From NCBI GenBank assembly GCA_038250865.1, contig JBBSBW010000006.1:26424-90423 (forward strand): 64,000 nt of DNA, in the 5' to 3' direction. Shown one piece after another: positions 23,725 to 59,954 of this stretch. A program made the position numbers and the translations under genes. The notes below the pieces were generated by a model. The model had not been told where the DNA came from. It saw only the letters and a program-made list of their open reading frames with translations, and made no database searches. How positions within the stretch are numbered: the stretch's first letter is position 1; every line of letters starts with the position of its first letter. This DNA is from Thermoanaerobaculia bacterium (GTDB lineage: Bacteria; Acidobacteriota; Thermoanaerobaculia; Multivoradales; UBA5704).

Positions 23725-24040
23725 GGAATTCGATTTTCCGGGAGAGAAATTCGATTTCGCGGACGAGAAAATCGATTTTCCGGACCGGGTGAACGATTTC
23801 GCCGGTGAGAAAATCGATTTTCCAGCCGGGAAAACTGATTTCGCGAGCCAGAAGAACGCTTTTGCGGGTGGGAAATTCGATTTCGCGGGTGAGAAAATCG
23901 ATTTCGCGAGCCGGATGAACGATTTCGCCGACCAGGAATTCGAATTTCTCGGCGGGAAAAACGAATTCGCCGACGAGAAAATTGAATTTCCGGGCCGGAT
24001 GAACGATTTCGCGGGTCGAAAAATCGATTTCGCCGACCGA
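23725..24040. repeat. Non-coding tandem array of 15 units of about 21 bp, each carrying the palindrome AAATCGATTT
   Basis: Units such as GAGAAAATCGATTTCGCGGAC repeat head-to-tail with 20-22 bp spacing. The reading frame is not conserved across units and no minus-strand ORF covers it. The plus-strand ORF 23789-24427 is a repeat artefact running antisense into marR. Confidence 0.85.
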
Positions 24041-24070
24041 ATGGACGGGGCGTCCGAAGCTCGGCGGCGG

Positions 24071-41654: not shown

Positions 41655-41998
41655 GGGGGCGTACCGGTTTCGACGGGGAACAAAGCGGTGCGGGGGTTGC
41701 GTGTCGAGGTCGACTCGTAAAATCGATTTTTTAACTGCGAACGACAACTTCGCTCTCGCGGCCTAAACGGCTGTGACGTCAATAGGGGGGCTCTGACCCG
41801 CTGCACCCCTAAAGACGCCGACAATGCGGGTCAATGGGTCCGGAGGCCTCGCGACGGACCCAGATACTAGCGAGGATAACTGCCGCGCGCGGCGCCTTCA
41901 CTCGAAGCGCGGCGGTGAAAAAGAAGTGAGGGCTACGCACGTAGATGCCACCGCGACGCGTTTTCCGGACGTGGGTTCGACTCCCACCGCCTCCACCA
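41655..41998 (+). ncRNA. ssrA: tmRNA (SsrA), tag peptide ANDNFALAA
   Basis: 5' GGGGGCGUACCGGUUUCGACGGGG tRNA-like acceptor/D analogue, resume-codon ORF gcg aac gac aac ttc gct ctc gcg gcc taa (41737-41766), 3' T-arm GGGUUCGACUCCCACC and ...CUCCACCA. Confidence 0.9.
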
Positions 41999-52729: not shown

Positions 52730-52824
52730 GTTTCACGTGAAACATGAACGCCCGGCAGGTCGTCGAAATGCGCGCGACCCGTTTAAAAGGGCAAGAACCA
52801 CACGTTTCACGTGAAACATGAGCG
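52730..52824. repeat. Two direct copies of a 20-bp element GTTTCACGTGAAACATGARCG containing the 12-bp perfect palindrome TTTCACGTGAAA
   Basis: Copies at about 52730-52750 and 52804-52824, 74 bp apart, in the jag-rsmG intergenic region of the ori-proximal cluster. Confidence 0.8.
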
Positions 52825-56505: not shown

Positions 56506-56595
56506 TGGCGGAGAGGGTGGGATTCGAACCCACGGACCGATTTCCCGGTCAACGGTTTTCGAGACCGTCCCATTCGACCGCTCTGGCACCTCTCC
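56506..56595 (-). tRNA. tRNA-Ser (anticodon CGA)
   Basis: Cloverleaf: acceptor GGAGAGG, anticodon loop CUCGAAA, long variable arm, T-arm GGTTCGAATCC, encoded CCA. Confidence 0.85.
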
Positions 56596-56607: not shown

Positions 56608-56698
56608 TGGCGGTGAGGGTGGGATTCGAACCCACGGTAGAGTTGCCCCTACACACGCTTTCCAAGCGTGCTCCTTAAGCCACTCGGACACCTCACCC
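56608..56698 (-). tRNA. tRNA-Ser (anticodon GGA)
   Basis: Acceptor GGGTGAGG, anticodon loop UUGGAAA, long variable arm, T-arm GGTTCGAATCC, encoded CCA. Confidence 0.85.
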
Positions 56699-56715: not shown

Positions 56716-57150
56716 TTACTTGCTCCGCAGCCGGGCGAAGAATTGACGGAGAACGTCCCCGCATTCCTCTTCCAGCACGCCGTCCACCACTTCGAGGCGA
56801 TGGTTCAAGCGAACATCCGCAACCAGATTGCCTAGACTACCGCAGTAACCGGCTTTCGGGTCCGAAGCACCAAAAACCAGACGCTCGACGCGGCTCGCGA
56901 CCAGAGCCCCCGCGCACATCGCGCAGGGTTCGAGGGTGACGTAAAGGGTGCATCCCGTCAGCCGCCACCCCCCGACCTGCTTGCCCGCCTCGCGAATCGC
57001 CAGGATCTCAGCGTGGCCCAAAGGGTCGCCGTCGATCTCCCGTCGATTGTAGCCACGCCCCACCACCTCGCCGCCGCGGACGATCACCGCGCCGATCGGC
57101 ACTTCGCCGAGCGCTTCGGCCCGGCGGGCCTCCTCAAGCGCCAGCTCCAT
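56716..57150 (-). CDS. tadA: tRNA-specific adenosine deaminase TadA
   Basis: HAEILAIREAG...TLEPCAMCAGA zinc-binding CDA motifs. The start is placed at MELALEEARRA; the long upstream read-through in the ORF track is treated as non-coding. Confidence 0.8.
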   Translation of the reverse strand: MELALEEARRAEALGEVPIGAVIVRGGEVVGRGYNRREIDGDPLGHAEILAIREAGKQVGGWRLTGCTLYVTLEPCAMCAGALVASRVERLVFGASDPKAGYCGSLGNLVADVRLNHRLEVVDGVLEEECGDVLRQFFARLRSK

Positions 57151-57318
57151 CCAAGCCTTGTCCACTTCGGAGAACAAAAGAGCCTCCACAACCGGCTGAC
57201 GAGCGGGGGATGATAGATGAAGTCCCGCGCCAGGTAAACCTTGCGCGTGGACGGTCCGGTTCCAGACGAGAGCAGAAGCGGTCTCGCCGAGAACGGCGGT
57301 GAGCCGACCCGGGCCAGC

Positions 57319-57531
57319 GGTGGTCCCGATCAGAACAGTAGTGGTTCCGACCCGAACACTGGTGATCTGGACCAAAACCGGGGTGGTCTCGACCAAACCA
57401 GAGGCGATCCCGACTGGAACAGGGGTGAGCTGGACCTAAACAGTGGTGGTCCCGACCGGAACAGGGGTGAGCTGGACCAGGCCCGTGGTGGTCCCGGCCA
57501 GATCAGCGGCGGGCTGGACCCGACCGCTTTG
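57319..57531. repeat. About 10 tandem units of a 21-bp repeat (consensus GGTGGTCCCGACCGGAACAGG), each with a short interrupted palindrome GGTC-nn-GACC
   Basis: Direct reading of head-to-tail units. Unit length is exactly 21, so the frame is preserved through the XRE gene's C-terminus and through the antisense ORF 57241-57726. Confidence 0.8.
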
Positions 57532-58136
57532 CCACTTGGAGGCCCAACTCGGCGAGAGCGAGTGCTTCGTCCGGATCGCTCAGCGCCAACTCTCTCGCTT
57601 TCTTCGGCCAGCCGTTCGACCAACGCAGGGCTCCAAAACGGTGGGGAGTACTCGGCCAGCATCAGGCGCTGGTCTCTGGGGAGGTCGGAGAGTCGGCGCC
57701 ATAGCTCTTCGGCGTCGGTCCGTTGATCCTCGGCCGAGCGGGCGCGGGGCTGTAAGGCCATGGCGACCCGGAGGAGCGCACCTTCAACGATCTTCCGGAC
57801 GCGGTCGCCGGTCACCGAGGAACAGGCGGAGTCCAACGGGCTGATTCCGTTGGCCGCCGGCCGCCGGATCGATTCGGCCGCTTCGACCACCGCCTTTACG
57901 GTCGTCCCTAACGCGGCGGCCATTCGGTCGAGGGTGCCGGGTCGAGGGATCTTGTCGCCCGTTTCGTAGGCCGAGATCTGCGTCCGGTGCATCTTCACGG
58001 CTCGGCCAAACTCCTCCTGCGTCATTCCCTGGGACGCCCGGAGCATCAACACCAACGTCGCCTCGGTGACGGCCTCGCCCTGGAGCGTTAAAACCGTCGA
58101 ATCGGGCTGTATCTTGCCTTTCGGGTAGCGTGACAT
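57330..58136 (-). CDS. XRE-family HTH transcriptional regulator with a C-terminal tail of 7-residue tandem repeats
   Basis: Cro/C1-type HTH (MTQEEFGRAVKMHRTQISAYETGDKIPRPGTLDRMAAALG). The last 65 aa or so, SSPLFRS GPPLFRS SSPLFQS GSPLVWS RPPRFWS RSPVFGS, are encoded by 21-bp DNA tandem repeats. Confidence 0.55.
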   Translation of the reverse strand: MSRYPKGKIQPDSTVLTLQGEAVTEATLVLMLRASQGMTQEEFGRAVKMHRTQISAYETGDKIPRPGTLDRMAAALGTTVKAVVEAAESIRRPAANGISPLDSACSSVTGDRVRKIVEGALLRVAMALQPRARSAEDQRTDAEELWRRLSDLPRDQRLMLAEYSPPFWSPALVERLAEESERVGAERSGRSTRSRRVGPPSGKAVGSSPPLIWPGPPRAWSSSPLFRSGPPLFRSSSPLFQSGSPLVWSRPPRFWSRSPVFGSEPLLF

Positions 58137-58226
58137 AGCCTTTCACCCGTTTAAACGGGAATTCCTTTCCGCGACACTCCGGTCGCCGGATCTTCCGGTG
58201 CGCCGAAATCCCCAAGGAGGATTACC

Positions 58227-58550
58227 GTGAAACCGCCTCTCCGCCGTCTCGCCGTCTCTATAGCACTCGCCTTCGCGCTCCAGCTGACCCTTCCCCCGGC
58301 GGCGGTCAGCGCACCGAAAGATGTGGGCCTTCGGTTTGGTGATTGGCTCGGATTCCTGTCTCGCCTCTGGGCTCCGGAAGGGTGCAGCATCGATCCGGGT
58401 GGGCGATGCACTGTTGAGCCCAAGCAGGTCGTGCAGAACAATGGTTGCAGCTTCGATCCCCATGGCGGTTGCCGCGAAAGCGACGCGACCACCCCGGCCC
58501 CCCGGGACAATGGCTGCATCTTCGACCCAGGCGGCCTCTGCGCGAACTGA
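58227..58550 (+). CDS. Small secreted protein with three Cys-pair repeats NGC(S/I)(I/F)DP(G/H)GxC
   Basis: Strong RBS AAGGAGG 6 nt before the GTG start; signal peptide MKPPLRRLAVSIALAFALQLTLPPAAVSA. Three repeats (GCSIDPGGRC, GCSFDPHGGC, GCIFDPGGLC). Divergent from the XRE regulator with a 90-bp intergenic gap. Confidence 0.55.
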   Translation: MKPPLRRLAVSIALAFALQLTLPPAAVSAPKDVGLRFGDWLGFLSRLWAPEGCSIDPGGRCTVEPKQVVQNNGCSFDPHGGCRESDATTPAPRDNGCIFDPGGLCAN

Positions 58551-59270
58551 CAATCGAAAGCCCACGATAGAGATCCACGCAGCTGGTGCCCGTATGCCAC
58601 CGGCTGCGTCAGCCATTCGACCCACCCACGGAGGCAGCCATTAAGTTCCCGCGCGGGGCGCCCACGGCAATCAAGGCGCGTTGCGCCTCGCGGGCCAGCT
58701 CGACGGTCGCCTTTTCCCGCTCGGCGGCCTCCAGGAACAGGCGAACCGCCGCCAACTCCTCGCGCTCGATTCTCACCGCTCGGAAGACCGCGGCGGTCTG
58801 GCGTGCCGGGCTCTTGGTCTCTCGAAGCCGCCCGGCCGATAGGTAAACCATGGCCAGATCAAGCGCTGCGAGTGCCGCGTCGTACGCAATCTTTCGCGCG
58901 GCGAAGTCCCGCCAGACCTGATCGAGTGCTGCGGCGGCCCGCTCGCCTTGCCCGGTTACCGCCGTAGCCTTACCTTCCGCCGAGCACGTCCCGTATCAAC
59001 TTGTACGCGGCGTTCGTCGAGTGCGAAAACGTCTGCTTCGGCGTCGGTGCCATGTTTGGCCTCGTGGGTGATTTCATAGAGCAGGGCGTTACGAACCCTC
59101 CGAACGTGACAACAAGCGATGACGGCGAGTGCCCTTCCGGGCGCTTTTTTCGGGTACCCACCCCTCGCGGTGATTTAAAAAGACAACCGGTAGCTTGGCG
59201 CGACCTTCGGAGGTTTGCAAGAGCTGGCGGCGCGAGGGGCTCTAGCCTTTCACCATGGAGGGCCCGGCAC

Positions 59271-59841: not shown

Positions 59842-59954
59842 GACGAAGGGTTCGGGTCCTGTGCATCGATCCTCACCGAACCTCGTCAGGCCCGGAAGGG
59901 AGCAGCGATAAGGTTGGGCGACCGAGTGCCGCAGATCAACCGGAACCCTTCGTC
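59842..59954 (+). ncRNA. ffs: Signal recognition particle RNA (small 4.5S type, ffs)
   Basis: Domain IV core GUCAGGCCCGGAAGGGAGCAGC. A terminal helix is formed by GACGAAGGGTTCGG (59842-59855) pairing with CGGAACCCTTCGTC (59941-59954). Canonical position immediately upstream of dnaX. Confidence 0.7.

Follow-up and report, generated by a model that had tools for sequence, protein, structure and literature searches.

Which role could be played by a short, exported and cysteine-rich peptide whose gene lies head to head with that of a transcriptional regulator? The question is raised by a locus in a stretch of 64,000 nucleotides (hereafter the window, at its full length) from a Thermoanaerobaculia bacterium of the phylum Acidobacteriota, taken from contig JBBSBW010000006.1 of assembly GCA_038250865.1. 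A first-pass annotation, made from the letters and a list of open reading frames (ORFs) alone, had pointed out there a gene for a 107-amino acid secreted peptide transcribed divergently from an XRE-family helix-turn-helix (HTH) regulator, and had offered a bacteriocin, a signalling peptide or a metal-binding peptide as its possible function. We report here that the peptide belongs to a large family whose genes are nearly always followed by a convergent gene for an HTH protein with tetratricopeptide repeats (TPR), a partner that survives in the window as a 3' fragment. By genomic inference we propose, with a probability of roughly 0.4, that the peptide is the multi-copy precursor of a signal sensed by these TPR regulators, in a diderm phylum and in a manner resembling that of the RRNPP systems.

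The peptide gene and its product

The gene occupies positions 58227..58550 of the forward strand and appears in the ORF list of the window as a GTG-start frame of 107 amino acids, stop codon included. Its Shine-Dalgarno (SD) sequence AAGGAGG (58214..58220, +) is separated by the 6-nt spacer ATTACC from the GTG at 58227, exactly the strong ribosome-binding site that had been described; a strong SD of the AAAGGAG type precedes nearly all homologous genes. The first 29 residues, MKPPLRRLAVSIALAFALQLTLPPAAVSA (58227..58313, +), form a predicted Sec-type signal peptide in which three basic residues precede a hydrophobic core of 15 residues and signal peptidase I would cleave after V-S-A; the mature part then opens with PK. 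Judged by eye, this n/h/c layout with an A-x-A-type site is common to the window peptide and more than 100 homologues, and the clean signal peptide of the first-pass annotation stands; AlphaFold2 (AF2) places a helix at residues 4-21 within it.

The mature part of 78 residues contains six cysteines, as had been counted, distributed over three loops. A Trp-rich amphipathic helix, FGDWLGFLSRL (amino acids 37-47; 58335..58367, +; an AF2 helix), and the tryptophan W48, invariant in the family alignment, lie just N-terminal of the first loop, EGCSIDPGGRC (amino acids 51-61; 58377..58409, +), which AF2 models as a mini beta-hairpin. The second loop, NGCSFDPHGGC, spans amino acids 72-82 (58440..58472, +) and the third, NGCIFDPGGLC, amino acids 95-105 (58509..58541, +), the protein stopping two residues further on, as do most family members. 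Three loops had been announced, all opening with NGC; their number is correct but the first opens with EGC. A degenerate DNA pattern for G-C-x-(I/F)-D-P-x-G-x-C finds three matches in the 64-kb window, all inside the peptide ORF, versus none in 100 dinucleotide-preserving shuffles of the window. The identical peptide, in the same gene order, was recovered in the separately assembled Logan contig L122. On this sequence evidence, the peptide gene is real and its product is a predicted exported, Cys-rich protein built of repeated disulfide-type loops.

A family of secreted Cys-loop peptides

The search for homologues of the Cys-loop repeat, which had been suggested as a check, established that the peptide is not unique and that its family counts several hundred sequence clusters. 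When 1.84 billion cluster representatives (50%-identity library) were searched exhaustively with phmmer, 356 proteins were retrieved at E<=1e-3, of which 26 reach E<=1e-10; almost all measure 100-135 amino acids. A profile search of a 90%-identity collection gave 515 proteins at E<=1e-5, every source-named member of which is labelled 'hypothetical protein'. The precursors have a median length of 112 amino acids (5th-95th percentiles 84-136) and share one layout, in which the signal peptide is followed by a Trp-rich amphipathic segment, with the family logo L-x-x-L-W-x-(K/E/D)-x-G-C, and by two to five loops, mostly three.

The 455 loop units compared have the consensus (N/E)-G-C-x-(I/L)-D-P-x-G-(R/G)-C, in which G (98%), C (100%), D (95%), P (98%), G (99%) and C (100%) are conserved and three positions vary. 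A charged residue stands two positions ahead of the G-C in 89% of the later repeats. Ala, Pro, Thr and Ser abound in the linkers, whose median length is 11 residues, and the C-terminal tail past the last cysteine counts two residues in 142 of 242 members and four in 59. The sequence D-P-x-G is a classic tight turn, and each loop unit can thus be read as a disulfide-stapled hairpin exposing three variable positions. The AF2 model of the peptide, computed from a 42-sequence alignment, consists of the signal helix, the helix at residues 37-47 and three tiny beta-hairpins on flexible linkers; it resembles beads on a string and has no globular fold (predicted local distance difference test score, pLDDT, 68.7; predicted template-modelling score, pTM, 0.26).

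That no family had been recognised in the first-pass annotation agrees with the curated collections: the peptide has no match in Pfam, NCBIfam, PHROGs or PADLOC, and a profile search of PDB sequences with the family returned chance matches at E about 0.9 only. The structure prediction suggested at the same time delivered the mini-hairpins just described, and Foldseek found zero matches of the peptide model in the PDB at E<=0.001. The peptide family and its cassette appear undescribed.

Genomic association with a TPR regulator

The genes surrounding the peptide gene were examined with a hidden Markov model (HMM) built from three regulators of about 490 amino acids and run on all ORFs of the fetched loci; here and below, counts of loci and gene pairs refer to the matches listed. 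Linkage was counted for the 97 peptide genes having at least 1.6 kb of downstream sequence, and 93 of them are followed within 700 bp by a convergent HTH-TPR gene, at a median distance of 30 bp (interquartile range 5-52); HMM coverage indicates that 75 of these 93 genes are full length. An HTH gene lies divergently upstream at 52 of 87 loci, as a full-length HTH-TPR gene in 29 cases and as a short form of about 270 amino acids in 23. The divergent pairing underlined in the first-pass annotation thus exists in the window but is the less conserved of the two associations, and the convergent partner had been overlooked because only its 3' fragment survives there. In several loci (L044, L045, L051, L058, L065, L110 and L114), peptide and TPR genes alternate in tandem arrays of the pep-TPR-pep-TPR type.

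All-against-all clustering of 6,182 ORFs, drawn from about 117 loci, recovered the peptide family in 109 loci and the HTH-TPR family in 107. The next cluster resembling a real gene was present in 11 loci, and there was no other widely conserved neighbour. Among the approximately 107 loci, this clustering identified no recurrent maturase, protease, transporter or immunity gene near the peptide gene, and no conserved radical-SAM enzyme, cyclase or ABC exporter.

The regulator, of about 490 amino acids, carries an N-terminal HTH_3/HTH_31 domain and TPR_12 repeats above the Pfam cut-off. Its family comprises 315 clusters at E<=1e-10, annotated just as 'helix-turn-helix transcriptional regulator'. 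AF2, supplied with 42 sequences, models it as an all-helical repeat solenoid (pLDDT 87.2, pTM 0.71), for which the top Foldseek match in the PDB is RapJ in complex with its pheromone (4gyo, E=6.2e-5, template-modelling (TM) score on target 0.59), followed by the Rap protein of phage phi3T with pheromones (8rst, 8rsv and 8rtc, TM about 0.62). From PDB sequences, the regulator profile retrieved generic HTH and TPR structures only. On its predicted structure, the regulator thus has the look of a DNA-binding domain joined to a TPR receptor for peptides.

A degenerate cassette in the window

The HTH-TPR model matches the window at two places only. The first (HMM positions 8-195) is the divergent gene, here called XRE268 (57330..58136, -), whose 268-residue product comprises the HTH and the N-terminal helical domain of the HTH-TPR family and has no TPRs. 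The XRE assignment of the first-pass annotation is borne out by Pfam (HTH_3 E=2e-12, 47.4 bits for a cut-off of 23; HTH_31 44.7 bits for a cut-off of 27), and hhalign superposes residues 31-191 of XRE268 on positions 15-182 of the HTH-TPR profile with a probability of 98.8%. From about residue 192, its C-terminal 77 residues are encoded by a repeat array, have a 7-residue periodicity and are unrelated to the HTH-TPR family. XRE268 aligns with the short forms of about 270 amino acids from other loci. The array itself (57315..57520) was delimited by TRF; it has a 21-bp period with a 42-bp super-period and overlaps the 3' end of the XRE268 ORF, and related arrays adjoin the orthologous short HTH genes.

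The second match is a 3' remnant of an HTH-TPR gene, convergent with the peptide gene and detected by tblastn at 58633..58977 (-), corresponding to amino acids 374-489 of the 495-residue homologue P0154; BLASTP gives 55% identity over 116 residues (E=6e-31). Its stop-to-stop segment, 58612-58995 (-), matches HMM positions 393-501 only, and positions 195-393 have no match in any frame of the window. As no in-frame start exists upstream of 58851, the callable remnant ORF is just 80 amino acids long (58609..58851), and it was called as an 80-residue 'gene' in a public assembly. To judge from these alignments, the cassette of the window is degenerate, its TPR receptor gene being cut to a 3' fragment. 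The simplest history would be the loss, by deletion, of about 1.1 kb from the 5' part of the regulator gene, and possibly of a neighbouring small TPR-like gene of the kind seen in L001, while the peptide gene, its candidate operator and the short HTH gene stayed intact.

Candidate operators and the 5' leader

The divergent intergenic region between XRE268 and the peptide gene extends from 58137 to 58226 and measures exactly the 90 bp indicated earlier. It harbours a perfect 14-bp palindrome, CCCGTTTAAACGGG (58146..58159), a candidate operator for the HTH regulator. Allowing two mismatches, the palindrome is found twice in the window, as the exact copy and as a one-mismatch copy at 52778, where 0.17 matches are expected. 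Its core, CCGTTTAAACGG, is conserved in the orthologous cassettes of L001/L055 and L062, where it likewise lies upstream of the peptide gene. Other cassettes possess different palindromes of 16-22 bp located 85-130 nt 5' of the start codon, such as GGGTCATC...GATGACCC, CTCACACACGTGTGAG and TTCACCCGAATATTCGGGTGAA. Differing palindromes would be expected of cassette-specific operators recognised by dimeric HTH proteins.

ViennaRNA predicts a stem-loop (58180..58205, +) in the 5' leader, immediately before the SD sequence, and a stem-loop occurs at the equivalent position in 39 paralogous leaders. Many paralogues (L007, L010, L014, L016, L022, L038, L060, L100 and about 30 further loci) share a leader of about 80 nt composed of a GCACCATAC element with an optional T, a long stem-loop and the SD AAAGGAG. 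The stem-loop has an outer stem GGAGAGGCGCC.../...GGAGCGCCUCUCC and an apex GCGGCC-loop-GGCCGC whose loop is often CAUGGAGG. Single-sequence folds concur on this structure, and the sequence changes look compensatory; when the conserved leaders were aligned with MAFFT, RNAalifold derived no consensus structure from them. Rfam detected nothing at the leaders of six related loci and, elsewhere, Acido-Lenti-1 and chance miRNA matches. The leader stem-loop may serve as a regulatory element at the RNA level or, alternatively, as a further palindrome to which a protein binds. The Acido-Lenti-1 RNA (RF01687) scores above the gathering threshold in L038 (3592-3638) and L100 (7007-7050), a few kb from the cassettes.

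At the other end of the peptide gene, an inverted repeat with 12-nt arms of 92% complementarity and without a T-run (58577..58609) lies between the convergent genes and is probably a bidirectional hairpin at transcript ends.

Taxonomic distribution and copy number

The genome scan used one genome per GTDB species and a hand-made DNA pattern for W-x3-G-C-x-[ILVMF]-D-P-x-G-x-C, and returned at least 117 stretches. Among the matches listed, about 105 are true family genes, all from metagenome-assembled genomes (MAGs) of Acidobacteriota labelled Thermoanaerobaculia, Thermoanaerobaculaceae or Holophagales; about ten matches from other phyla do not have the family layout and were discarded as chance. 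No cultured organism was identified among the homologues. Several copies coexist in one MAG, with at least seven in MFD04935.bin.1.7, at least six in MFD09368.bin.2.205 and at least five each in SMAG_U9264 and SMAG_U9298, and the loops of such copies diverge at the variable positions.

The other genes of the window are consistent with a chromosomal location of the cassette, and include yidC, rnpA, rpmH, two tRNA-Ser genes, tadA, ffs, dnaX, ybaB and recR; the GC content across the cassette is not atypical. An origin of the cassette in anti-phage defence or in a prophage was considered and rejected, PADLOC and PHROGs giving matches at the level of the HTH domain only.

Comparison with known systems

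The cassette would work most like RRNPP quorum sensing (Rap-Phr, NprR-NprX, PlcR-PapR, PrgX, Rgg-SHP, AimR-AimP), as far as analogy goes. A Sec-exported propeptide is encoded beside what would be a cytoplasmic TPR receptor, the regulator has an N-terminal XRE-type HTH as do PlcR, NprR and AimR, many diversified cassettes coexist per genome, the last conserved peptide unit sits at the extreme C-terminus of the precursor, and Rap-pheromone complexes rank first among the PDB folds matched by the regulator model (TM 0.59-0.63), with generic TPR proteins close behind. The operational signature of RRNPP_detector combines a small secreted propeptide and a TPR receptor of 250-500 amino acids encoded by direct neighbours (PMC10075063). 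The cassette displays this five-point signature at the family level, through its Sec signal, its receptor of about 490 amino acids and its neighbouring genes, save for propeptides (107 residues in the window, 112 for the family median) slightly above the default of 10-100 amino acids (PMC10075063); the window itself has no intact TPR receptor.

There are also differences. Peptide signalling through cytoplasmic TPR receptors counts as a speciality of Bacillota with their phages and plasmids (PMC10075063, PMC11343458), whereas all true cassette matches among those listed come from diderm Acidobacteriota. The presumed receptor of the cassette has no detectable sequence homology to RRNPP receptors, and the propeptides are longer and carry two to five near-invariant Cys-bounded hairpins instead of short, linear pheromones that vary highly. 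The two genes mostly converge, an arrangement known in some Rgg/SHP pairs only. The cassette should not be counted among the RRNPP systems, to which it has no proven homology and from which it departs in taxon and in peptide chemistry. A literature search on peptide signalling, TPR or RRNPP in Acidobacteria or Thermoanaerobaculia found nothing relevant, and another one returned RRNPP papers on Bacillota, their phages and plasmids only.

Several putative peptide units separated by linkers also recall the tandemly repeated pheromones documented within one propeptide for the Rap, AimR, PlcR and NprR systems (PMC9765709, PMC11343458), for instance the Phr of phi3T and phi105 and the multi-peptide AimP, PapR and NprX (PMC11343458, PMC9765709). 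Those units are linear 5-7-mers freed by extracellular proteases, whereas the cassette units are Cys-closed hairpins of 9-12 residues with no evident cleavage site besides the charged residue two positions before G-C. XRE268, for its part, resembles short XRE repressors of the Cro/C1 type by its HTH_3/HTH_31 domain and by the perfect palindrome of its divergent region, but is a truncated HTH-TPR derivative with an array-encoded C-terminus and not a stand-alone Cro-like protein. The peptide loops may also recall nine-residue, disulfide-stapled hairpins such as the reactive loop of Bowman-Birk inhibitors and SFTI-1, with seven residues between two cysteines, a Pro-containing tight turn and repeated presentation on a small secreted protein; the sequence of that loop is C-T-K-S-I-P-P-I-C versus C-x-I-D-P-x-G-x-C in the peptide family, for which PDB searches gave no sequence or fold match.

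A proposed circuit and its competitors

The steps of the proposed circuit would be the following. Sec export and removal of the signal peptide would yield the 78-residue product, a Trp-rich helix with three hairpin loops of nine residues from Cys to Cys (C-x-[IF]-D-P-x-G-x-C), presumably closed by disulfides outside the cytoplasm and joined by Pro/Thr/Ala-rich linkers. The cognate regulator would sense the whole precursor, or loop units cut from it, through its TPR domain and would then act at the cassette-specific palindromic operator before the peptide gene, resulting in an RRNPP-like peptide/receptor circuit. In the window, TPR-less XRE268 alone would be left to bind the conserved palindrome and, the receptor gene being a 3' fragment, the peptide would be an orphan signal or rely on a receptor encoded elsewhere in the genome.

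A number of observations weigh against this circuit. The presumed receptor is missing from the very window that raised the question, and the loop motif is almost invariant across paralogues, which speaks for a shared structural or processing constraint rather than for specificity. Disulfide loops would be reduced upon re-entry into the cytoplasm; these cells have an outer membrane, and ORF clustering of the approximately 107 loci among the matches listed found no importer linked to the cassette. The precursors, by their median length, exceed typical RRNPP propeptides. Close behind the Rap matches of the regulator model come LGN and other TPR proteins that bind peptides, as well as TTC7B, and the generic structures found by its profile among PDB sequences include no RRNPP receptor. 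Loops are more similar at their variable positions within one protein (0.45) than between proteins (0.23), but the spacers show the same within-protein excess (0.47), so that loop similarity reflects recent internal duplication and not proven selection; a selective homogenisation of the loops was dropped on this ground. Finally, adjacency and co-duplication are equally expected of a plain regulator-target pair.

This last point leads to the main alternative, possible if somewhat doubtful, in which the peptide is a secreted effector (an adhesin, a component of the matrix, or a peptide with antimicrobial or competitor-directed action) and the HTH-TPR protein merely controls its transcription while its TPR domain senses another ligand or partner. 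The invariant disulfide-hairpin motif resembles a structural or effector module more than a variable pheromone, the mature product measures 70-100 residues and includes a Trp-rich amphipathic helix that could interact with membranes, and palindromic operators 5' of the peptide gene suit simple transcriptional control by a regulator which, as is often the case, sits next to its target and duplicates with it. However, the convergent layout is atypical of a regulator-target pair, for which a divergent one is expected, and the folds most similar to that of the TPR regulator are those of peptide-pheromone receptors. An effector would also have to explain what four to seven dedicated sensors per genome (among the matches listed) would sense, if not their own peptide. 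A self-toxic bacteriocin without an immunity, export or processing gene conserved in the approximately 107 loci would be unusual, and the marks of class II bacteriocins (a conserved immunity gene, an ABC exporter and a double-glycine leader) were not found at the listed loci, where the peptide has a Sec signal peptide instead.

It is unlikely that the peptide gene of this genome is a mere leftover of a decaying cassette whose function is lost. The truncated HTH-TPR partner, with its start codon missing for most of the homologous stretch, and the replacement of the XRE268 C-terminus by array-encoded sequence would fit such a decay, but the peptide ORF is intact and keeps every invariant residue, its signal peptide, a consensus SD and the conserved palindrome, and the HTH domain of XRE268 is intact as well. 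Very unlikely is an extracytoplasmic metal- or redox-active protein in which Cys pairs and Asp bind a metal or buffer thiols and disulfides in the periplasm: six to ten cysteines and a conserved Asp in a short exported protein invite this idea, yet C-x7-C with a D-P-x-G turn is a hairpin staple and is not known as a metal-binding motif, no metal transporter, chaperone or MerR/ArsR/CsoR regulator is linked to the listed loci, whose regulators are XRE-TPR proteins, and many diversified paralogues per genome are not expected of metal homeostasis. Less likely still, if only slightly, is a multi-core precursor of a ribosomally synthesized and post-translationally modified peptide (RiPP), each loop being a core modified by enzymes encoded elsewhere, for example by Cys-to-Asp thioethers as in ranthipeptides. 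Repeated conserved cores with variable spacers do look like multi-core RiPP precursors, Cys and Asp are three residues apart, and the short, Cys-rich, repetitive and family-conserved peptides recall SCIFF/ranthipeptides and sactipeptides; against this, the listed loci (approximately 107) have no conserved radical-SAM maturase, cyclase, protease or ABC exporter, the peptide begins with a classical Sec signal sequence and not with a RiPP leader, and neither Pfam nor NCBIfam matches it to RiPP precursor families. Among the functions offered in the first-pass annotation, a signalling peptide best fits the comparative evidence. Nothing specifically supports a bacteriocin or a metal-binding peptide, and genes for immunity, export or maturation are not conserved around the more than 100 loci.

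Beyond the signal precursor sensed by TPR regulators, a broader picture can be entertained, tentatively and with more doubt than belief: Thermoanaerobaculia and Holophagales may possess an unrecognised peptide communication system, in which every Sec-exported precursor carries two to five disulfide-stapled hairpin 'words' and has a cytoplasmic XRE-TPR receptor of its own, as a functional analogue of RRNPP that evolved independently. It is no more probable that, within such a system, the three variable positions of each word would confer specificity, that up to seven or more orthogonal channels would operate, and that decayed cassettes such as that of the window would be 'signal-only'.

Other features of the locus

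The cassette is placed between a tRNA-Ser/tadA block and ffs. The two adjacent tRNA-Ser genes (CGA and GGA) lie at 56506-56595 (-) and 56608-56697 (-). The tadA ORF, encoding a tRNA adenosine deaminase (56716-57396, -; 226 amino acids), has a long N-terminal extension into the 21-bp array region that is probably not translated; its conserved deaminase part begins near MELALEEARRA, and a public gene call gives 219 amino acids. The small signal recognition particle RNA gene ffs (59850-59948, +) is directly upstream of dnaX in an ffs-dnaX-ybaB-recR arrangement, and a tmRNA is encoded at 41655-41998 (+).

Past the regulator remnant, an accessory ORF of 158 amino acids (139 as called in L122; 59215..59691, +) weakly matches (E=2.8e-4) an HMM built from proteins of L001, L004, L011, L031, L077 and L090, and has no Pfam match. 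Members of this accessory family, of 60-165 amino acids with the motif (A/T)PFRE(A/S)VL.HFT, lie past the regulator gene in some cassettes (L001 8454-8645, L004 6508-6852, L011 2981-3430, L031 6301-6714, L077 4886-5287 and L090 2889-3389). A 63-residue ORF beside the cassette of L004 (5858-6049), seen at this locus only, contains an H-x3-C-x2-C motif (RHLLTDCPHCRESL) resembling the zinc-finger N-terminus of anti-sigma factors.

Arrays with a 21-bp period are very common in Thermoanaerobaculia/Holophagales sequences, where 93 of 208 TRF rows have a period of 21, 42 or 63. They often show 42- or 63-bp super-periods, count 5-23 copies, differ in their units among loci and often include a short palindrome, for example GACCCACGGGTC. 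Of 33 arrays, eight to nine border on an HTH gene at its 3' end, and six of these genes are the truncated short form. Further examples are found in L001 (5097-5401), L062 (6136-6488), L080 (1423-1739), L093 (1248-1549), L029 (5867-6351), L060 (7118-7420), L054 (75-321) and others; another array of the window (23730-24047), between a 151-residue ORF and a MarR-like gene, is unrelated to the cassettes. The idea that the arrays are iterated operator palindromes was rejected, their units being unlike the palindrome of the same locus.

Significance

The pattern observed at the family level is striking, while the mechanism is proposed from comparison of genomes and the copy in the window is decayed. 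Should the signalling reading be wrong, there would still be a large unnamed class of secreted Cys-loop peptides with a dedicated regulator, meriting the definition of a family. Under the proposed reading, the hairpin unit would provide a compact peptide scaffold, stapled by a disulfide and naturally variable at three positions, and hundreds of natural peptide/regulator pairs are open for specificity tests. If the proposal is true, the principle of peptide signalling through TPR receptors would be extended to a diderm phylum, by way of a structurally different but architecturally equivalent multi-copy cassette in uncultured soil and sediment Acidobacteriota, and would offer a handle on social behaviour in this abundant and poorly understood group.

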